Positions 16,896-26,418 of a DNA stretch of 34,853 bases are shown in pieces. A program made the translations under genes and the position numbers. The stretch spans positions 1-34,853 of the forward strand of contig QHTP01000037.1 in assembly GCA_003220855.1 (NCBI GenBank), read 5' to 3'. The notes beneath the pieces are model-generated. The model saw only the letters and a list, made by a program, of their open reading frames with translations. It was not told the origin of the DNA and searched no databases. Source of the DNA: Gemmatimonadota bacterium. GTDB lineage: Bacteria; Gemmatimonadota; Gemmatimonadetes; Gemmatimonadales; GWC2-71-9. Position 1 is the stretch's first letter, and each line of letters starts with the position of its first letter.

Positions 16896-18827
16896 TTACG
16901 GCTCGACGATATCGATGGTCTGGCCGGCCATGATGGGACCGGCCACGCTCTGTCGTCGACCCGATGGCCAGCGCACTTCGATCGCCCCGGCGTGGTCGGC
17001 GTCCGCGAGGCCGAAATAGAGCGGCAGATCGCTCTGCGAGAGGTATCCCGACTTGCCGTCGAGCAGCTTCAGGATCCGGCGCCCGTCGGGGAGCACGACG
17101 GTCACCAGCGCGCCGAGTCCCTCGCGGTTGGAGCGCGTGCCCCGCAGTCGGACCTGGAGGAAGTGGACCGGGTGTCGTTGCGCGAGATCGCTCACCAGCA
17201 CCTGCGGCCCGGCGTTGAACTCGTTAGTGACGATGTCGAGATCGCCATCGCCATCCAAGTCGAGTGCGACCGCCGAGCGTGTGCCGCGCGAGGCCATCAT
17301 GGTCAGGTGGCCTGCGGCATCAATCCGACACGCTCCGCTCATGGACTCGGGGTGGGCGCAGGCGCTGCACAAGGGGTGGCCCCGGTCCGCGCCCTCGCAC
17401 TCGAGCGTGAACCAGACCTGCTGTGTGCCGTGTGGCCGCGGCTCGACGCCCAGCACGAATTCGCTCGGGAGGAAGCGGTGGCCTCCCTCGTTCAAGAGGA
17501 CGGAGTTGACCCCGTATCGGTAGGGGAAGTTCATGCTCGCCGCGATGAAGATGTCGTCCCATCCGTCGGCATTGAAGTCGTCCACGCTCGGTCCCCAGGG
17601 CCAATACGTTTCGACCCCGACCGCGTCGGACACTTCGTCGAATCGGCCGCCCCCGCGGTTCGCGAACAGCGCGTTTCCGAAGATGAGGCCGCCCTTCCCT
17701 TTCGGGAACAACTTACCGGACACCTGCGACGAGTCGTCCTTGCGCATCTCCCCCGCCCAGTCGCCGGCGCGGAGGTCGACCCACATGTCCGCGTGCATGC
17801 TGGTGGTGAAAACGTCGAGCCGACCGTCGCCATCGAAGTCGAACACCTTTACGCCCATCGACCCCCAGGAGGTCTTCGGGAAATACTGCGCGGTCGCGTC
17901 GCGAAAATGTTTCCCGCCTTCGTTGAGCCAGAGGTGACTCCCGCCTTGCATATCGAGCACGTACAAGTCGGGGAAGCCGTCGTCGTTCACGTCGAACGCC
18001 GTGGCATCGCCGCTCCAGCTCAAATCGACCAGCCCGACCTCGTGACTCACGTCCTTGAACCGGTTCCCGCCCAGGTTGTGGTAGAGAATGCTCGCTTCGG
18101 CGCGCTCGGGGTGGAGATGGCCGGTGAAGGCGTCCTCCAGCGCGACATAGTAGCCGCCCGGCCCGCGCTGGTTGCTGGTGTACACCCCCACGTTCGTCAC
18201 GAACAGATCGAGTAATCCGTCGCCGTCATAGTCGAAAAACACCGCGCCGGAGGAGTGACCCACGTAGCCCACGCCCGCCTGCGCGGTGATGTCGCGAAAC
18301 GTCCCGTTGCCGAGGTTCTCGAACAGCCGATTCCCGTGGCGCACCGTCGTGACGAACAGGTCGGGATCGCCGTCGTTGTCGATGTCGGCGAACGCGCAGG
18401 CGACCGCGATGTCGTCCGGCATGGCCAGTCCGGCTCGCGCGGTGACGTTCACGAAGCGGCCGTTGCCGACGTTCTTCCAGAGCTCGTTGGTGCCGAGTTG
18501 CGTCACGAAATAGAGATCGGGGAGACCGTCGCCGTCGACGTCCGCGGCGCACAGGCCGCTCCCGTGGTCGTAGTGCGCGAGCTTGTAGGCTTTGCCCGCG
18601 TCGTCGACGACGCGGTTCTCGAACGTGATGCCGCTGGCCTCTCTGCGATCCGTGAAGCGGAAGTCGTGAACCACCTGCGAGTGGGCGGCCAGCTCGGCTT
18701 CCTGGCGCGCCCGCTCGACCAGCCACGTCGGTGTTCGGGAAGAGCGGCACGAGACCGCGAGGAGCGCGAGCGCTGCGACGAGTGCGCCGCGGCTGGTTCG
18801 GCACGTCCCGTGGACAAGCGTGGTCAC
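16896..18827 (-). CDS. CRTAC1-family lipoprotein (FG-GAP/VCBS repeats + C-terminal ASPIC/UnbV domain)
   Basis: Lipobox-like LLAVSC. Seven DxDxDGxxDL-type repeats. C-terminal NREGLGALVTV...GKSGYLSQSDLPLYFGL...IEVRWPSG. Confidence 0.9.
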   Translation of the reverse strand: MTTLVHGTCRTSRGALVAALALLAVSCRSSRTPTWLVERARQEAELAAHSQVVHDFRFTDRREASGITFENRVVDDAGKAYKLAHYDHGSGLCAADVDGDGLPDLYFVTQLGTNELWKNVGNGRFVNVTARAGLAMPDDIAVACAFADIDNDGDPDLFVTTVRHGNRLFENLGNGTFRDITAQAGVGYVGHSSGAVFFDYDGDGLLDLFVTNVGVYTSNQRGPGGYYVALEDAFTGHLHPERAEASILYHNLGGNRFKDVSHEVGLVDLSWSGDATAFDVNDDGFPDLYVLDMQGGSHLWLNEGGKHFRDATAQYFPKTSWGSMGVKVFDFDGDGRLDVFTTSMHADMWVDLRAGDWAGEMRKDDSSQVSGKLFPKGKGGLIFGNALFANRGGGRFDEVSDAVGVETYWPWGPSVDDFNADGWDDIFIAASMNFPYRYGVNSVLLNEGGHRFLPSEFVLGVEPRPHGTQQVWFTLECEGADRGHPLCSACAHPESMSGACRIDAAGHLTMMASRGTRSAVALDLDGDGDLDIVTNEFNAGPQVLVSDLAQRHPVHFLQVRLRGTRSNREGLGALVTVVLPDGRRILKLLDGKSGYLSQSDLPLYFGLADADHAGAIEVRWPSGRRQSVAGPIMAGQTIDIVEP

Positions 18828-19171: not shown

Positions 19172-19759
19172 GTGAACCGAGTACTCGTGGTCCTTCTCGC
19201 CTTGGTCGCCACGCCCGCTGTCGCGAGCGTGGCCCAGGACAATCCAGCCAAAGGCGCGCCTCGTGCCGCCGGGTCGCTGGACAATCCGGGGCTGGGCCAC
19301 GACGCGGCCCACTGCGCGATGCGTGCGGCGCTGCACCCGGGTGCAACCATCAACAAGTGCCCGGTGGCGGATCCGCCCCCGCCTCCGCAGCCGCCCCCAC
19401 CTCCGCCTCCTCCGCCTCCGGCGCCGTCGCCGACCTGCGGGAGCGCCCCGGCAGGTGGTGGAACGGTGGAGATCGACGGCCAGGTGTACGTTGACGCCTC
19501 GCCGTGGTCTGGCCTCGCGAACTGGTGCATCCAACTCACCGGTCCGGTGTCGGGCGCGGTGACGACCGACGCTTCGGGGAACTATATCTTCTCGGGCCTG
19601 CCGGCCGGCACCTACACGGTCTGCGAAGTGCTGCAGACCAACTGGCACGAAACCTTCCCCTCGAGCGGGCCCGGGTGTGCGGGCGGGTTCGGGTACAGCA
19701 TCACGCTCATCGACGGGAGCGGCGCCAGCTTCATCGACTTCGCCAACTTGAGTCCGTGA
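19172..19759 (+). CDS. Secreted protein: signal peptide, polyproline linker and SdrD-B/Cna-B-like domain
   Basis: GTG start with AGGAG SD. Sec signal MNRVLVVLLALVATPAVA, Pro tract, then IDGQVYVD...TTDASGNYIFSGLPAGTYTVCE...DFAN, an SdrD-B-like pattern. Confidence 0.75.
   Translation: MNRVLVVLLALVATPAVASVAQDNPAKGAPRAAGSLDNPGLGHDAAHCAMRAALHPGATINKCPVADPPPPPQPPPPPPPPPPAPSPTCGSAPAGGGTVEIDGQVYVDASPWSGLANWCIQLTGPVSGAVTTDASGNYIFSGLPAGTYTVCEVLQTNWHETFPSSGPGCAGGFGYSITLIDGSGASFIDFANLSP
19372..19419 (+). repeat. CCN trinucleotide run encoding PPPPPQPPPPPPPPPP
   Basis: Read directly from the sequence. Confidence 0.85.
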
Positions 19760-19782: not shown

Positions 19783-19820
19783 ACGGCCGGCGTCGAATCG
19801 ACGCCGGCCGTTGTGTTTTT
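19783..19820 (+). terminator. Rho-independent terminator
   Basis: Perfect 13-bp stem ACGGCCGGCGTCG/CGACGCCGGCCGT with loop AAT, followed by TGTGTTTTT, starting 24 nt after the stop of 19172..19759. Confidence 0.85.
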
Positions 19821-19985: not shown

Positions 19986-20005
19986 CATACCCTTAGGAGG
20001 GTATG
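19986..20005 (+). promoter_or_regulatory. Hairpin sequestering the SD and start codon of 20003..20776
   Basis: CATACCCT-TAGG-AGGGTATG is a perfect 8-bp stem. AGGAGG spans the loop and 3' arm, and the ATG is paired. Confidence 0.55.
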
Positions 20006-20776
20006 AGGATATTACGCTTTGCGCTGCTCGCCGCCGTGGCTGTCGGCTGTCATTTCGACAAGCTGTTCCAACCCGCCGGCGGCGGGCGGGCGCCGCCATA
20101 CGGATCGCAGCGAGCCCATCTGAAGTTCACGGCTCCACCTCACAGTGCGATGCAGGACAGTACGATCAAGCCGCCGGTCCAAGTCACGGCGTTAGATTCA
20201 GGCGGAACCGTCGTGACGAGCTTCTCCGGGACCGTGAGCATCGCGATCGGCAACAACGGCGGCGTGCTGCAGCCAGGGACGCTTGCGGGTTCTGATCACG
20301 TAGCCGCCATCGGGGGCGTGGCCACGTTCAGCGATTTGCGCATCGACCAGATCGGCACGGGGTATACACTCACCGCGACGGCATCCCCGCTCGCGGGGGA
20401 TATGAGCGACGCGTTCGACATCACCGCGACCCCGCCGCCCTCGGGCCAGGCGACGAAGCTCGCGTTCGTGGGACAGCCGACCAACACGGCACCAGGTGCG
20501 ACGATCTCGCCGCCCGTGCGAGTCGCGGCGGTGGACGACCAGAACAATATCGTGACTACGTTCAGCGGCGGCATCACGATCGCGATCGGCCACAACGGCG
20601 GTTTGCTCAAACCAGGTACCTTGAGCGGCACGCTGCTCCAACCCGCCGTAAACGGGGTCGCTACTTTCGCGGACCTGAGCATCGACCAGGCGGGGACCGA
20701 CTATTACACGCTGGTGGCAAGCAATCCTCAGCTGGGCAATATGGAGAGCGTTCACTTCTTGGTCCCGGTGCTGTAA
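20003..20776 (+). CDS. Lipoprotein with two tandem ~100-aa Ig-like beta-sandwich repeats
   Basis: AGGAGG SD and lipobox AVAVGC. Repeats LKFTAPP...PPVQVTALD...IAIGNNGG...GTLAG...GVATFSDLRIDQIGTGYTL and LAFVGQP...PPVRVAAVD...IAIGHNGG...GTLSG...GVATFADLSIDQAGTDYYTL. Confidence 0.8.
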   Translation: MRILRFALLAAVAVGCHFDKLFQPAGGGRAPPYGSQRAHLKFTAPPHSAMQDSTIKPPVQVTALDSGGTVVTSFSGTVSIAIGNNGGVLQPGTLAGSDHVAAIGGVATFSDLRIDQIGTGYTLTATASPLAGDMSDAFDITATPPPSGQATKLAFVGQPTNTAPGATISPPVRVAAVDDQNNIVTTFSGGITIAIGHNGGLLKPGTLSGTLLQPAVNGVATFADLSIDQAGTDYYTLVASNPQLGNMESVHFLVPVL

Positions 20777-22371
20777 TGCGCTGTCCCCAGTGTTTCCTCG
20801 CCGACATCCCCGAAGGGGCACGCACCTGTGTGCTGTGCGGCTTTTCGCCGGACGCCCAGGGAAGCGGCCATGCCGCGCGGGGCCGCCGCGCCACTCCCGC
20901 CGCTCGGTCCACGCCGACGGACCCGCACGGCCCACACGCGCCGACGGCCGTGGCGGAAGAGGTCGACACCGTCCCGACGGAGCTCGACGCGCGGCGCGAG
21001 CTGTCGACGGAATTTCGCATCGAAGCGCTGCTGCAAGGGTTGCCGGGGCCAATTGTCTATCTCGCCTGGGACGGCGCCGATCGGCCGGTGACGCTCAAGG
21101 CCGTCGCGCGCCAGCACCTGGGACCGGCGGCGGATCGGTTCGCGCGCGCCGCCGAAACGGCCATGCAGCTCGAGCACTCGCACATCCTCCCGCCGTTTCG
21201 GTTCGGCGGCAGCGAGCAGTTCGTGTGGTACGCCACGAAGCGTGTCGACGGTCGCTCGCTCGAGAGCATGCTCGAGACCGTCGGCTCGCTGGAGCTCTCG
21301 ACCTGCGTCCGCATCCTAGAGCAGGTGGCGAGCGCGCTGGACCACGCGCACCGGCGGGGATTGGCGCACGGGGGTCTGCGTTCCGACTGTGTGATCGTCG
21401 GCGCGAACGAGTGGGTGCAGGTGAGCGACTTCATGGTGGGGGGGGTGTTCCAGCTTCCGCCCGACGAAGTGCGCGCGAGCGAGCCCGGACCACGCGCGGA
21501 TCAGTACGCGCTGGCGGCGCTCGCGTACGAGTGCCTGACCGGAACGCCGGCGCGCGACGCGCCACCGCTCTCCAGGTTGCTCGACGGCCGCAGCGACATT
21601 CCCCTCCACGTGTCGCAGGCGCTGCGCCGGGCCGTGAGCAGCCGGCCCGCCGAGCGGTTTCCGACGGTCCTCGACTTCGTCACGGCGCTCGGCGGCCCCA
21701 CGGCCACGGCCGCGGCCCCGGCTCCCGCCCAGCCGCCGTCCTGGTTCGAGGGGGCGCCACAGCGGAGCCCGCGCGCCCCGGTCGTGATCGTGGCCGACGA
21801 AGACGAAGACGACGAAGAGCTGGAGCGTCCGCCGCGTCCTCCCACGCGCCGGCGGGGACGCCTCGTCGCCGCCGCCGGCCTGGTGATCCTCGTCGGCGGC
21901 GCCGCGGTCTGGCTCGGCACCTCATCCGCGCCGGCGTCGCAGACCAGCGCCTACGACATGGGCCGTCCGCCAGACCCGGCGCCGCAGCCGGCGGTCGAGA
22001 CACCCCCGCCCGAGCCGCCACGCGAGACAGCGCGCCGCCGAGCGGAGCCCGCGCCGGTCAAGCGGACACCCGTGGTACGGCGGACGACACCAGCCGTGTC
22101 CCCACCGCCGCGCCGCGTCGAGCGGCCAGCCCAACGCCCAGCCCAACGCCCCTCTGAGCCGGCGCTGCTGTCGGTCAACTCGGTCCCCTGGGGGAGCGTG
22201 TACGTCGACGGTCAGCCGGTGGGCAACACGCCACAAATCGACCTCCAGGTGGCAGCCGGAGCGCATCGGCTGCGGGTTGAGCGCGACGGGTTCCGTCCCT
22301 ATGAGCGCCTGGTCGAGCTGGCTCCCGGCCAGCGGCTGCGGATCACGGACATCGCCCTGGTGGAGCGCTAG
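20776..22371 (+). CDS. Membrane Hanks-type Ser/Thr kinase-like protein (probable pseudokinase): zinc ribbon + kinase fold + TM + Pro-rich linker + PEGA domain
   Basis: CPQC...CVLC at the N-terminus. Kinase subdomains VYLAWD, VTLK, LEHSHI, ASALDHAHRRGLAH, VSDF, ADQYALAALAYECLTG and RPAERF. TM LVAAAGLVILVGGAAVWL. PEGA-like SVNSVPWGSVYVDGQPVGNTP...GAHRLRVERDGF. Confidence 0.85.
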   Translation: MRCPQCFLADIPEGARTCVLCGFSPDAQGSGHAARGRRATPAARSTPTDPHGPHAPTAVAEEVDTVPTELDARRELSTEFRIEALLQGLPGPIVYLAWDGADRPVTLKAVARQHLGPAADRFARAAETAMQLEHSHILPPFRFGGSEQFVWYATKRVDGRSLESMLETVGSLELSTCVRILEQVASALDHAHRRGLAHGGLRSDCVIVGANEWVQVSDFMVGGVFQLPPDEVRASEPGPRADQYALAALAYECLTGTPARDAPPLSRLLDGRSDIPLHVSQALRRAVSSRPAERFPTVLDFVTALGGPTATAAAPAPAQPPSWFEGAPQRSPRAPVVIVADEDEDDEELERPPRPPTRRRGRLVAAAGLVILVGGAAVWLGTSSAPASQTSAYDMGRPPDPAPQPAVETPPPEPPRETARRRAEPAPVKRTPVVRRTTPAVSPPPRRVERPAQRPAQRPSEPALLSVNSVPWGSVYVDGQPVGNTPQIDLQVAAGAHRLRVERDGFRPYERLVELAPGQRLRITDIALVER

Positions 22372-22373
22372 CC

Positions 22374-23420
22374 GTGTCCCGCGTCCTGACCGTTCTCGCG
22401 ATCCTCGTCGCCGCCGCGTCCCGCGTGCCCGCGCAGTCGGCCGACGATCTGTTGCAGCAGGGCGTGCGGGCCTATCAAAGGCTCGAGTACGACGCCGCGG
22501 TGGCGCTCTTGCGCGAGAGCCTGCTGCGCCGGGAGCCCGCCGCGCTGGCGGACTCGCAGCGGGCGCGGGCCCTGTCGTATCTCGCCGCGACTGAGCTGTT
22601 CCAGCAGCAGCGCGATTCCGCCTCGGCCGCCTTCCGCACTCTCGTGCGCCTCGACCCGCGCTACCGACCGGACGAGCTCATTTTCCCGCCGCAAGTTACC
22701 AACCTGTACGAGGAGGTCCGCCGCTCGACCAAGGTCCTGAGTGTGCAAGTCCCACCCGTCACCGAGCTGCACGCGCGCCTCGAGTGGTTCACCGCTCGTG
22801 TGGTCACGACGTCGGTGCAGTCGGTGACGGCGACGCTGGCGCGCGACGACGGCACGCCAGTGCGCACGCTGTACGACGGACCGGTGGCCGACAGCCTCTC
22901 GTTGAAATGGGACGGCCTCACGGCGGGCGGAACGCTGCCGGCGGAGGGCCGTTACGTGTTGCATGTGGCGCCACGCCCGGCGCTGCAGGACGGGCCGCGT
23001 CCGCTCCAAGTCACGCTCGACATCACTCAGGTGGCGCCCGACACGCTGCCCTGGCCGGCGCCGAGCGGGCCAGCCCTGCTGCCGGAGCGCACGTCGGCGG
23101 GGCCGGCGCTGGGCTCGCTCGCGGCGGGGGCCCTGGCGGGCGGCGCCGTGGTCGCGCTTCCGTCGCTGTTCGGCCGCAGCGGCGAGGCTACGGGGGCCCG
23201 ATTCGCGGTGGCCGCCGCAGTCAGCGTCGCGGGGCTGGTGGGCTTCTTCGCGCACCAACCCCGGCCGATCGACGCCAACATCCGCGCCAACGCCCCCGCG
23301 CGCGCCGACTGGCAGCGCCGTGTCGAAGGGGTGCAAGCCGAGAACGCCAAGCGCCGCGGGCAAGCGCGCCTGCTCATTCGGGCCGGACCGGTCACGGTCG
23401 CCGAGAGGGCCCCGTCATGA
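22374..23420 (+). CDS. Exported protein with TPR-like N-domain, FlgD-Ig-like domain and C-terminal hydrophobic segments
   Basis: Signal peptide. Helical LQQGVRAYQRLEYDAAVALL...ALSYLAA...AFRTLVRLDP. FlgD-like DGTPVRTLYDG...LKWDGLTAGGTLPAEGRYVL. Two Gly/Ala-rich hydrophobic stretches near the C-terminus. Confidence 0.7.
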   Translation: MSRVLTVLAILVAAASRVPAQSADDLLQQGVRAYQRLEYDAAVALLRESLLRREPAALADSQRARALSYLAATELFQQQRDSASAAFRTLVRLDPRYRPDELIFPPQVTNLYEEVRRSTKVLSVQVPPVTELHARLEWFTARVVTTSVQSVTATLARDDGTPVRTLYDGPVADSLSLKWDGLTAGGTLPAEGRYVLHVAPRPALQDGPRPLQVTLDITQVAPDTLPWPAPSGPALLPERTSAGPALGSLAAGALAGGAVVALPSLFGRSGEATGARFAVAAAVSVAGLVGFFAHQPRPIDANIRANAPARADWQRRVEGVQAENAKRRGQARLLIRAGPVTVAERAPS

Positions 23421-24079
23421 TGAAGGGCGGCCTAAGGGCGCTCGCCGGTACGTGCGCGCTCGTGCTGGCGGCGTCGGCGGCGTCCGCGCAGCGCCGGCCC
23501 ACCATCTCGCTGCGGGCGGACGCCTTCATGATGTGGGTGCACAGCGACACGGGCCTCGCCCGCACGTCGCTGCGCGGTCCCGGGTTCGGCGGTGAGGGGC
23601 GGATTGGCGTCAACGGGCTGCTGTTCGGCCTGGGACTGATGCAAGGTCAGCTCAAGCCCGGGGGCGTCACCGGTGGGGGGGCGTCGCACGTCGACCTCGT
23701 GCAGGGAACCGTGTTCGTGGGCGGCCGGCTCTTGCCCTGGCTCGAGATGACCGCCGGGCCCGTGGTGCGGGCGTACGTGACGGACTCCACCACCGAGCGC
23801 TGGGTGTTCTGGCAGGCGCGGGCCCGCGTGGACGCCCCGATCGTGGTGGGGCAACTCGCGAGCTATCTCGAAGTGTGGCGGGCGCTCGCGTCCGAGGTGA
23901 ACCTGCCCACCGGGGCCGGCCGGATCCAGGGTGGAGAGGCCGGCGTGGTGTTTCAGCCGCCGCAGCAGCGAATCTGGCTGCGGCTCTCCTACCGCATGGA
24001 CGACGCGCTGCTCGGCGGGCCCAGCGGCAACGAAACGCTCGAAGCGATCACGCTCTCCGGGGGTATTGTCATCCCCTGA
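23417..24079 (+). CDS. Hypothetical exported protein, predicted outer-membrane beta-barrel
   Basis: ATGA overlap with the upstream stop. Signal peptide ending ASAASA-Q. Alternating amphipathic Gly/aromatic strands (GFGGEGRIGV, WVFWQARARVD, IWLRLSYR, ITLSGGIVIP). Confidence 0.65.
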   Translation: MMKGGLRALAGTCALVLAASAASAQRRPTISLRADAFMMWVHSDTGLARTSLRGPGFGGEGRIGVNGLLFGLGLMQGQLKPGGVTGGGASHVDLVQGTVFVGGRLLPWLEMTAGPVVRAYVTDSTTERWVFWQARARVDAPIVVGQLASYLEVWRALASEVNLPTGAGRIQGGEAGVVFQPPQQRIWLRLSYRMDDALLGGPSGNETLEAITLSGGIVIP

Positions 24080-24085
24080 CGGGCG

Positions 24086-26418
<2,333 letters not shown>

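Follow-up and report, generated by a model that had tools for sequence, protein, structure and literature searches.

A co-inherited envelope gene module of Gemmatimonadota with a Hanks-type pseudokinase and a predicted outer-membrane barrel

Do four neighbouring genes whose predicted products reach from the cytoplasm to the outer membrane make up one system, and if so, of what kind? The question is raised by a Gemmatimonadota contig of 34,853 nucleotides (the window, by which we mean the whole stretch of DNA analysed). An earlier note on this DNA had described a run of four tightly coupled plus-strand genes, lying between a terminator and a convergent ftsB, and had proposed that their products form a single envelope-spanning scaffold or signalling conduit acting by binding rather than phosphorylation. 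The ORF listing and direct reading bear out this layout, with four plus-strand ORFs, here called A to D in order, occupying positions 20003-24079:

19783..19820, forward strand: intrinsic terminator of the preceding gene, the upstream boundary of the module (13-bp stem with 11 GC, 3-nt loop, T-run)
19995..20000, forward strand: AGGAGG, Shine-Dalgarno-like, just 5' of the gene A start (direct reading)
20003..20776, forward strand: gene A, predicted lipoprotein of 257 aa with two Big_1-like Ig repeats (ORF, lipobox, internal repeat)
20776..22371, forward strand: gene B, 531 aa, zinc ribbon, pseudokinase, transmembrane (TM) helix, Pro-rich tether and PEGA domain (ORF, profiles, alignment)
22374..23420, forward strand: gene C, 348 aa, signal peptide, TPR, Ig, membrane hairpin and tail (ORF, alignment, AlphaFold2)
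23417..24079, forward strand: gene D, 220 aa, precursor of a predicted 10-stranded outer-membrane beta-barrel (ORF, structure model)
24086..24400, reverse strand: ftsB/divIC, convergent, the downstream boundary and outside the module (DivIC PF04977, E 4.9e-11)

All three junctions are as they had been described. A and B share a TAATG overlap (20774-20778), B and C are separated by two nucleotides (TAG-cc-GTG, gap 22372-22373), and C and D overlap in ATGA (23417-23420); overlapping or abutting starts and stops are also seen in relatives. A terminator scan found 2 terminator-like sites where shuffled sequences lead one to expect 1.9; what speaks for the one at 19783-19820 is thus its strong stem and its location rather than the site count.

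The linkage is not peculiar to this contig. D lies directly 3' of C in 19/20 loci of clades 1-3 and in 9/9 clade-4 loci. Scanned independently, the genomes of 185,579 species gave 51 loci, one of them without room downstream, and D comes directly after C in all 50 that could be assessed. A PEGA-bearing gene is found directly 5' of C in 20/20, 9/9 and 43/47 loci. At most five C matches occur per genome, falling into four clades in this sample, and the order recurs in these four diverged paralogue clades amid different genomic surroundings. For B, C and D alike the tree resolves as (clade 1 + clade 2), clade 3 and clade 4, and this congruence at clade level indicates that the B-C-D set was duplicated as a block, giving at least four clades. 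Values of dN/dS run from 0.08 to 0.58 across all four genes. At E<=1e-30 the C family counts 451 cluster representatives (50% identity); its full-length relatives were found in Gemmatimonadota only, mostly in one order, and the confirmed module relatives are all Gemmatimonadota MAGs. Judged by sequence, the four genes are inherited together as an operon-like envelope module, and this module is confined to Gemmatimonadales-level lineages.

B is missing from 4 of 47 loci and from the clade-2 copy in the window's own genome, and in three loci (L064, which is the G009 locus, L089 and L092) it is cut down to a TM-PEGA protein; the protein upstream of B-C-D is variable, as described below. Because the kinase, intact in two clades, is truncated at some loci and missing at others, only C-D, rather than the whole four-gene set, qualifies as the invariant core, and a function centred on the kinase cannot be the core function, as some copies dispense with B.

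Gene A was expected to encode a lipid-anchored tandem-Ig protein, and the sequence agrees:

20003..20050, forward strand: signal peptide and lipobox (Cys16), followed by conserved C-H-F-D-K-L-F (sequence, orthologue alignment)
20120..20428, forward strand: Ig-like repeat 1, residues ~40-142 (internal repeat)
20450..20764, forward strand: Ig-like repeat 2, residues ~150-254 (internal repeat, weak Ig light-chain matches)

Orthologues keep both the lipobox Cys and the motif that follows. Both halves of A match the same target stretches within its own genome, as an internal repeat would, residues 116-225 weakly match Ig light chains (E 0.015), and language-model similarity on Atlas features likens A to Big_1 clusters at 0.92. 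We thus read A as a putative lipobox protein carrying two Big_1-like Ig repeats; its dN/dS is 0.27-0.40. The corresponding protein in relatives ranges from 126 to 1772 aa and is of Big_1-like, Big_2 or Big_3_5 type. Among clade-3 upstream genes the ORF listing shows 126-aa lipoproteins and one 1772-aa protein, and the clade-4 upstream protein matches Big_2 (E 5.2e-8). A C-[HG]-F-x-[KD]-[LV]-[FL] motif after the lipobox Cys is common to the upstream lipoproteins of clades 1 and 3. A lipobox or Ig-repeat protein lies immediately upstream in 25 of the 38 assessable loci when two queries are used, and these queries found no Ig protein there in the other 13. This variation in size and type is cargo-like and suits a display role for the Ig protein better than a sensory one.

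Gene B had been taken for an inner-membrane protein with a cytoplasmic zinc ribbon and kinase fold and a periplasmic PEGA domain, and profiles and alignment recover each of these parts:

20782..20847, forward strand: N-terminal CxxC...CxxC zinc ribbon, residues 3-24 (alignment)
21007..21705, forward strand: Hanks-type pseudokinase domain, residues ~78-310 (partial Pkinase match, alignment)
21862..21918, forward strand: single TM helix, residues 363-381 (hydrophobic stretch, aligned across clades)
21919..22146, forward strand: Pro-rich periplasmic tether, 76 residues, 26% Pro (composition)
22168..22347, forward strand: C-terminal PEGA domain, residues 465-524 (PF08308)

B is thus predicted to be a single-pass membrane protein with its zinc ribbon and kinase domain in the cytoplasm and its tether and PEGA domain outside the membrane. 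The Cys pairs of the ribbon are common to the clade-1 rows and most rows of clades 2 to 4 of the B alignment, three clade-2 rows (L028, L029 and L033) being without it; a clade-4 paralogue matches Zn_Ribbon_1 (E 1.3e-5), and the window copy gives a weak match to UPF0547 (E 0.32). The tether is 35-97 residues long with 17-32% Pro across 16 aligned proteins. The PEGA profile PF08308 scores 45 bits (E 1e-11), above its gathering score of 20.8, and this domain has the lowest dN/dS in B, 0.08-0.19.

The kinase domain of the window copy matches PF00069 over residues 94-222 only (E 3.3e-8, 33.7 bits against a cut-off of 31.7), which supports a kinase fold and not activity; the clade-4 paralogue matches Pkinase at E 1.6e-49. 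In an alignment of kinase motifs from 16 rows covering clades 1-4, VAIK Lys108 and DFG Asp218 are invariant (16/16), DFG reading D-F-M in the window copy. The catalytic-loop HRD is H-G-G in the window copy and its two closest orthologues and H-R-D in clades 3 and 4; the metal-binding Asn of that loop is Cys in the window copy and Asn in clades 2-4; and the Gly-rich loop has degenerated to G-L-P-G-P-I-V-Y, compared with G-G-M-x-x-V in clades 3 and 4, which keep every canonical kinase motif. Across the clades HRD decays stepwise, to HAD or HGA, then to HGG, followed by deletion. Lacking the catalytic Asp, the loop Asn and a proper Gly loop, the window copy is by its motifs catalytically dead, and by the same measure its genome carries both active-type and dead copies. 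Action by binding rather than phosphorylation is therefore possible for the window's paralogue clade, but not for the family as a whole, as two sister clades retain all kinase motifs. Where present, the pseudokinase domain is under purifying selection (dN/dS 0.15-0.39), and a fold so maintained yet unable to catalyse suggests a scaffold or allosteric role in the window copy. B also matches the PADLOC anti-phage kinase PD-T4-6 (E 1.8e-28), but over the kinase domain only, where any Hanks-type domain would score so, and B in the window copy has lost its catalytic residues; A, C and D had no PADLOC match in that comparison. By eye, none of the listed ORFs of the inspected module loci appears to encode an FHA protein, a phosphatase or an obvious substrate.

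For A, C and D no Pfam, NCBIfam or PADLOC model scored above threshold, and the named matches of C and D are all "hypothetical protein". C had been taken for an exported protein with TPR, FlgD-like Ig and membrane segments:

22374..22433, forward strand: signal peptide, ending at invariant Ala20-Gln21 (invariant columns; model helix 2-15)
22440..22727, forward strand: TPR-like helical domain, residues 23-118 (five helices, pLDDT >90)
22737..23033, forward strand: FlgD-like Ig sandwich, residues 122-220 (AlphaFold2, Foldseek)
23100..23252, forward strand: two-helix membrane hairpin, residues 243-266 and 274-293, with a short Gly/Ser/Thr-rich loop (alignment, model)
23271..23399, forward strand: conserved tail, helix 300-328 and strand 332-342 (alignment, model)

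The AlphaFold2 model (pLDDT 85.7) confirms the predicted TPR and FlgD-like Ig domains, to which the Pfam matches TPR_2 (E 0.025) and FlgD_ig (E 0.0026, 18.1 bits against a cut-off of 27) are both sub-threshold. By structure the TPR domain matches PilF (Z 11.8, rmsd 1.3) and BamD (Z 11.0), and Foldseek matches the Ig domain to FlgD (3osv, E 8.3e-4). This domain fold, Ig/Fn-III-like, is all that residues 122-220 have in common with the flagellar hook cap. We considered and rejected C as a FlgD, since the FlgD N-terminal region and a flagellar context are missing and the N-terminal half is TPR; the NCBIfam FlgD model gives 18.3 bits against a cut-off of 230. The tail helix carries invariant Asn302, Asn306 and Asn324. 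In a natural variant, L035, the hairpin alone is deleted and the tail kept, and strand 332-342 is modelled as paired (pLDDT ~91), the Ig domain being the sole sheet in the model. Both observations fit a topology in which C is held in the inner membrane by the hairpin with both ends periplasmic, as we infer. Since a linker of only ~20 residues joins the periplasmic part to the membrane, C would probably not reach the outer membrane unaided.

The suspected outer-membrane barrel, D, has a signal peptide:

23417..23488, forward strand: D signal peptide, residues 1-24, then nearly invariant Gln25 (sequence, alignment, model)

D is confidently modelled as a barrel of 10 strands (pLDDT 90.5), and its top Foldseek matches are all outer-membrane barrels. 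The closest fold is OpcA (Z 20.6, rmsd 2.5, 185 aligned), followed by Dot/Icm porin I (Z 19.6), pOmpT (Z 19.0) and the designed TMB10 (Z 16.1). The likeness to OpcA, OmpT/Pla and the Legionella Dot/Icm "porin I" is one of predicted fold only, with sequence identity of 7-9%. At E<=1 Pfam returned just a weak Porin_4 match (E 0.014), and neither Pfam, NCBIfam nor a D-family profile run against the PDB placed D in a named outer-membrane protein family. The last residue of the D family is often not aromatic; an aromatic C-terminal residue is the usual barrel-assembly signal. Barrels of this small kind, OpcA and OmpT among them, function as anchors, adhesins or enzymes and not as channels.

No described system matching the four-gene set was found in Pfam, NCBIfam, PADLOC, the PDB or the literature searched, in keeping with the earlier note, which knew of no named system of this composition. 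Partial likenesses are nevertheless instructive. When the membrane is damaged, TagQ, a lipoprotein, and TagR, a periplasmic protein, act on the Hanks kinase PpkA of Pseudomonas (PMC13713981). That envelope-state sensor of the P. aeruginosa H1-T6SS, in the TagQRST-PpkA threonine phosphorylation pathway, resembles the module: each has a lipoprotein, a partner in the periplasm and a Hanks-type kinase of the inner membrane with an outward domain. Where that pathway has TagR and TagST, the module has a dedicated outer-membrane barrel and a TPR-Ig hairpin protein; its external domain is PEGA, and the kinase of the window copy is dead by its motifs. No sequence relation between the two was found, and the T6SS sheath gene PF05943 (TssC/VipB) was detected in the E. 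coli positive control and in 0/5 module-bearing genomes (four at least 96% complete; G000 76%). B also resembles the PASTA-type receptor Hanks kinases (NCBIfam NF033483), with a cytoplasmic kinase, one TM helix and an external binding domain; its best NCBIfam matches are receptor-type kinases (E 3.2e-19 and 9.2e-18, scores far below the cut-offs). Unlike them, however, it bears PEGA on a Pro-rich tether, has lost catalytic residues in the window clade and is obligately linked to two dedicated envelope proteins. Inverse autotransporters (intimin/invasin) combine a Big_1 passenger and a barrel in one chain; we rejected this assignment, as in the module passenger and barrel are encoded apart, by A and D, with two other genes intervening, and D has 10 strands.

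What, then, might these genes do together? That they are unrelated neighbours sharing a transcript by an accident of a compact genome is very unlikely given the linkage counts, and it sits badly with an order that recurs in four diverged clades in different surroundings and with gene trees congruent at clade level. The main rival to the reading that we prefer is a lipoprotein or adhesin display system resembling Slam and T11SS, with the Ig (lipo)protein as cargo, C as a membrane-anchored TPR chaperone or receptor, D as the outer-membrane insertion or translocation partner and B as a dispensable regulator. According to PMC5449769, Slam has a periplasmic TPR domain fused N-terminally to a predicted 14-stranded outer-membrane barrel, is encoded beside its lipoprotein substrates and has homologues reported in Proteobacteria. 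This offers a precedent for TPR and barrel beside a lipobox gene, here A. The Ig proteins found upstream, among them those of other kinds in clades 3 and 4, differ in length and in Ig type while C-D stays constant, C-D persists without B, and the post-lipobox motif common to clades 1 and 3 is what one would expect of a sorting or recognition signal. Against this, the TPR and barrel are separate proteins in the module, with C anchored in the inner membrane; D has 10 strands where that account of Slam predicts 14, no DUF560 match (Pfam, E<=1), and a size that makes it an improbable conduit. Further difficulties are the 13 loci in which the two queries found no Ig protein and the presence in the set of an ancestrally active receptor-type kinase, foreign to Slam systems. 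We therefore consider display unlikely, if worth keeping in view.

Somewhat less probable still is a plain structural tether, in which C-D and the PEGA domain of B link the membranes or organise a patch of outer membrane, with no part in signalling or export, and the kinase is a leftover in the window clade. The invariance of C-D, the stepwise decay of the kinase across clades, the affinity of D to OpcA and OmpT and the low dN/dS of PEGA within B would all suit such a role. A leftover, however, should not be under purifying selection as the pseudokinase is, two clades keep their kinases fully intact, and up to five C matches per genome in diverged sets are unexpected for a plain tether.

The reading that we favour, at somewhat short of even confidence, is that the module is an envelope sensor or scaffold. 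Its products are predicted to lie in the cytoplasm, inner membrane, periplasm and outer membrane, and linkage together with this topology suggests a physical scaffold or conduit. The PEGA domain of B, on its long tether, would extend towards the barrel D and the lipoprotein A, and C, held in the inner membrane by its helical hairpin, would be an inner-membrane co-receptor, so that events at the outer membrane could be coupled with the kinase domain in the cytoplasm. Ser/Thr phosphorylation would be the output of ancestral and sister copies; in the window copy the pseudokinase may instead serve as scaffold or allosteric partner. Paralogous sets with different upstream Ig proteins might then have different input specificities. 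Several observations weigh against this reading: some copies do without B, no FHA protein, phosphatase or evident substrate was seen among the listed ORFs, the upstream Ig proteins vary as cargo would, the link of C to the membrane is short, and the last residue of D is often not aromatic. A bolder and more doubtful version would make this an undescribed class of trans-envelope receptor, in which the D barrel and the Ig lipoprotein A are read by the tethered PEGA domain of a Hanks kinase with C as obligatory co-receptor, duplicated into at least four specificities per genome, some sets having become a phosphorylation-independent pseudokinase switch.

Gemmatimonadota abound in soil, and their envelope biology is, to our knowledge, almost unstudied. 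C and D represent two uncharacterised families in strict synteny with a receptor kinase, and the active, degenerate, truncated and missing kinases among related genomes form a natural series for the study of pseudokinase function. Should display prove to be the true role, the module would extend Slam-like logic outside the Proteobacteria, assembled from split parts. If instead its products assemble into a complex, this would connect an outer-membrane barrel with a Ser/Thr kinase, a new coupling of the outer membrane to Ser/Thr signalling; we know of few links between the outer membrane and Hanks kinases so far, TagQR-PpkA being one.

Four adjoining genes on the plus strand, here called A, B, C and D, lie on contig C218, one of the 365 contigs of a 76% complete assembly, in sequence of about 70% G+C. 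The features of the locus are as follows.

19783-19820, terminator of the preceding gene: 13-bp stem with 11 GC pairs, and a T-run
19995-20000, AGGAGG, read in the sequence
20003-20776, plus strand, gene A: open reading frame of 257 aa
20776-22371, plus strand, gene B: open reading frame of 531 aa
22374-23420, plus strand, gene C: open reading frame of 348 aa
23417-24079, plus strand, gene D: open reading frame of 220 aa
24086-24400, convergent, DivIC/FtsB homologue (E 4.9e-11)

The junctions described in the earlier note (TAATG between A and B, a 2-nt gap between B and C, ATGA between C and D) are exactly as claimed, and the terminator and the convergent ftsB that it placed on either side are there as well. 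Behind the DivIC/FtsB gene is what we take, from its translation, to be enolase. The terminator ends the gene of a small secreted protein (19172-19759, plus strand) containing a Pro/Gln stretch of about 17 residues and, at E about 1.7e-5 and so below the cut-off, weak matches of SdrD_B and CarboxypepD_reg-like type. Further upstream, 16896-18827 on the minus strand encodes a 643-aa lipobox protein full of D-x-D-G-D-G-type repeats, presumably FG-GAP/VCBS-like; this protein also adjoins the module in the congener G009 (locus L024, 9074-10990).

Matches to C were found in 30 of 41 related genomes, with up to five per genome, and fall into four paralogue clades, the window copy belonging to clade 1. 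Among 20 loci taken from clades 1-3, a B-type gene directly precedes C at all 20 and a D-type gene directly follows it at 19. The exception, L035 (4680-7861 on contig C1 of G026), has no D after C; its C protein lacks only the two hydrophobic helices and retains the conserved tail, and its B protein carries a tandem pair of PEGA domains together with a very long linker rich in Pro and Ala (763 aa). In clade 4, B is followed by C at nine of nine further loci, and the open reading frame after C in each case matches the 214-aa candidate barrel of locus L045 (E <= 1e-94). These nine frames, missed by tblastn with the window D, match the D profile at E <= 1e-24, the profile itself including the L045 sequence. 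An independent scan of one genome per species (185,579 species), with a clade-1/2 peptide pattern blind to clades 3 and 4, gave 51 confirmed loci, all from Gemmatimonadota, Gemmatimonadales or "uncultured bacterium" MAGs, some of them coinciding with loci already fetched. D follows C at 50 of the 50 scan loci with room downstream, and a PEGA domain directly precedes C at 43 of the 47 with room upstream. The linkage counts bear out the expectation that the gene order is conserved in relatives, and they exclude chance adjacency.

The window's own genome carries further copies. Contig C128 (L041, 35-4171) holds a clade-2 set of two Big_3_5 Ig proteins, C' and D', without B; contig C65 a Big_2 lipoprotein, B' and C'; and contig C250 a PEGA-ending protein, truncated where the contig stops, with C'' and D'' behind it. 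Trees of B (careful search) and of C and D (quick searches) each split clades 1 and 2 together from clade 3 and clade 4, and the set was therefore duplicated as a block; clade 1 branches within clade 2 or as its sister. Rows left out of the trees were B proteins below 400 or above 600 aa, C proteins below 330 aa and D proteins cut by contig ends, and the B row of L037 labelled clade 3 is the B of a second, adjacent clade-1-like module. L037 (6312-13271) has two modules back to back, with a clade-3 set on the minus strand (lipoprotein, kinase with motifs intact, C and D) and a clade-1-like A and B on the plus strand. Flanking genes differ between the clades, and the unit is therefore confined to the three or four genes.

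The set is narrowly distributed. Of 201 genomes sampled from the phylum, 61 contain a full-length match to the C profile, a tally that includes three genomes flagged unpublished (G205, G181 and G085), which contribute to the counts and to no other claim; the counts by family were 48 of 97 in f1, 4 of 38 in f2, 2 of 3 in f3 and 1 of 1 in f5. Families outside the window's class gave partial-domain matches only. Against 1.84 billion cluster representatives, the profile found 8609, 1375 and 451 matches at E cut-offs of 1e-3, 1e-10 and 1e-30, respectively, and almost every one of the top 150 has a length of about 350 aa. Nearly all source names in the C and D families are "hypothetical protein", two JGI rows bearing generic domain names (TPR repeat protein; flagellar hook capping protein FlgD), and every named source organism is a Gemmatimonad MAG. 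The window stretch itself turns up in metagenomes of soil and rhizosphere from 17 studies, and the source sample of the window may be among the best of them; the 20 runs listed, none of them RNA, are all soil or rhizosphere metagenome DNA.

The suggestion that the last protein is a beta-barrel has held up well. The model of D (pLDDT 90.5) consists of a signal helix and ten antiparallel strands, and its best fold matches are 10-stranded outer-membrane barrels: OpcA (Z 20.6, rmsd 2.5, 185 aligned), the Legionella Dot/Icm "porin I" (Z 19.6), pOmpT (Z 19.0) and a designed 10-strand barrel (Z 16.1). The top 50 Foldseek matches are all outer-membrane barrels; a PDB profile search with the D family returned no hits at all. 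The usual signal for barrel assembly is an aromatic last residue, but in the D family this position is taken by Pro, Arg, Trp, His or Phe and is not consistently aromatic (window D C-terminus, 24062-24076).

Protein C was modelled at a mean pLDDT of 85.7. Behind a signal helix, residues 23-118 form five TPR-like helices and residues 122-220 an Ig sandwich; a pair of long hydrophobic helices comes next (243-266 and 274-293), and the protein closes with a helix at 300-328 and a final strand at 332-342. Its TPR part resembles PilF (Z 11.8, rmsd 1.3, 78 aligned) and BamD (Z 11.0), and its Ig part FlgD (Foldseek E 8.3e-4); a whole-chain fold search gave domain-level matches only, with no solved chain matching the whole. 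As a lead only, a Myxococcota TPR cluster resembles C at 0.85 by language-model features. In both C and D the signal peptide runs up to a conserved Ala-Gln or Gln. Since there are two membrane helices, the N-terminal domains of C and its tail should be on the same, periplasmic side. This topology fits the final strand, modelled as paired (pLDDT about 91) in a protein whose model has no sheet other than the Ig domain, and it fits the L035 variant, which keeps the tail without the hairpin. With a link of only some 20 residues between its Ig domain and the membrane, C is probably confined to the vicinity of the inner membrane. The loop between the helices (residues 267-273, window 23172-23192) is Gly/Ser/Thr-rich in all four clades, and no other part of C would face the cytoplasm and the kinase; that the loop is a kinase substrate is pure speculation. 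Three C-family rows are unusually long, and none appears to be a true gene fusion: P0386 and P0390 look like frameshifted read-throughs and were rejected, and P0242 (563 aa) is a family member that has three tandem copies of the TPR module ahead of its Ig domain and hairpin.

Gene A encodes a hydrophobic leader followed by a cysteine in lipobox context, and this Cys and the following H-F-D-K-L-F are kept in orthologues. The two halves of A are homologous to each other. By language-model features, A adjoins Big_1 (invasin/intimin-type Ig) clusters of Gemmatimonadota (0.92, 195 shared features); phmmer gave weak matches to Ig light chains (E 0.015) and nothing stronger. A motif directly after the lipobox Cys, C-[HG]-F-x-[KD]-[LV]-[FL], is common to the upstream lipoproteins of clades 1 and 3 (window 20048-20074; L038 at about 9839, L039 at about 5197, L037 at about 9878), with a single instance in the 76%-complete genome. 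In the 51-locus scan, and with two queries only, an upstream A-type or Big_3_5-type Ig protein was found at 25 of 38 assessable loci.

Protein B combines an N-terminal CxxC...CxxC zinc ribbon, a partial Pfam match to a kinase domain (residues 94-222, E 3.3e-8), one hydrophobic helix (363-381), a 76-residue stretch that is 26% Pro, and a PEGA domain (E 1e-11); among the B proteins aligned, the Pro-rich tether of the PEGA domain is 35-97 residues long. In an alignment of 16 B proteins, clades 3 and 4 keep all Hanks motifs (G-G-M-x-x-V, Lys, alpha-C Glu, H-R-D, Asn, D-F-G, S/A-P-E). Clade 2 has H-A-D or H-G-A, and clade 1 has H-G-G (H-G-A in L023 and L027), a degenerate Gly loop and Cys in place of the catalytic-loop Asn (Ser in L023); the window protein has D-F-M, with Lys108 and Asp218 kept. 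Pfam kinase scores agree with the motif states, a clade-4 paralogue scoring 1.6e-49 against 3.3e-8 for the window B. The earlier note supposed that the system acts by binding rather than phosphorylation. That is a fair reading for the window copy, whose H-R-D, catalytic-loop Asn and Gly loop are lost or degenerate, but it does not extend to the module; with the motifs kept in clades 3 and 4, the binding-only reading fits this copy as an apparently derived state of what would ancestrally be a kinase receptor. Among the window's close relatives the dead domain shows no decay, its dN/dS being 0.15-0.39.

B can also be reduced or missing. At the same chromosomal place in G009 (L024, 8042-8635; L064 in the scan), where the FG-GAP-like neighbour of the window is also found, it is a 197-aa TM-PEGA protein without zinc ribbon or kinase domain, and gene A is missing; in the scan, this locus, L089 and L092 have PEGA without a kinase domain. 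B is absent entirely from four clade-2 loci and from the clade-2 copy of the window's own genome. In that genome, some 30 stretches on about 30 contigs match the B kinase domain by tblastn, and at least two PEGA-bearing kinases, on contigs C312 and C72 (the latter by tblastn match only), have no C-D following.

That no known system has such a composition agrees with the libraries (Pfam, NCBIfam, PADLOC, PDB) and literature searched. A, C and D stay below the threshold of every Pfam, NCBIfam and PADLOC model: NCBIfam has no match for A or D and two sub-threshold rows for C (TssQ_fam, 20 bits against 65; FlgD, 18.3 against 230), and PADLOC has none for any of the three. Among the papers listed, literature searches on the PEGA domain with kinases gave no such system, and those on Gemmatimonad protein kinases or PEGA nothing relevant.

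A Slam-like display system for Ig lipoproteins would also fit the locus: the upstream Ig proteins vary in size and type, clades 1 and 3 have the lipobox-adjacent motif in common, and B is dispensable. Slam, as described in PMC5449769, joins a TPR domain in the periplasm to a DUF560 barrel of 14 predicted strands and is encoded beside its lipoprotein substrates. D, however, has 10 strands and is not a DUF560 protein, so the likeness is one of logic, not of membership. A structural tether is a further possibility. A T6SS regulator like TagQR-PpkA (PMC13713981) is unlikely: a search of five carrier genomes, of which four are at least 96% complete, found TssC in none.

In the sensor arrangement that we propose instead, D, perhaps with lipoprotein A, would form the outer-membrane end, the PEGA domain of B would be a mobile reader, and C would be the inner-membrane partner setting the state of B. 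At 35-97 residues, the Pro-rich tether could be long enough to reach the outer membrane. A three-chain complex prediction of B (355-531), D (26-220) and C (22-348) scored 0.54, and a control with D replaced scored 0.68, so the prediction carries no weight on either side of the question of binding.

The comparisons show a real, conserved, multi-copy and lineage-restricted envelope set, for which the libraries and the literature searched contain no described counterpart. It brings known folds together in a new way and includes two unnamed families. By its proposed function, we would place it among the envelope-linked Hanks-kinase sensor modules.
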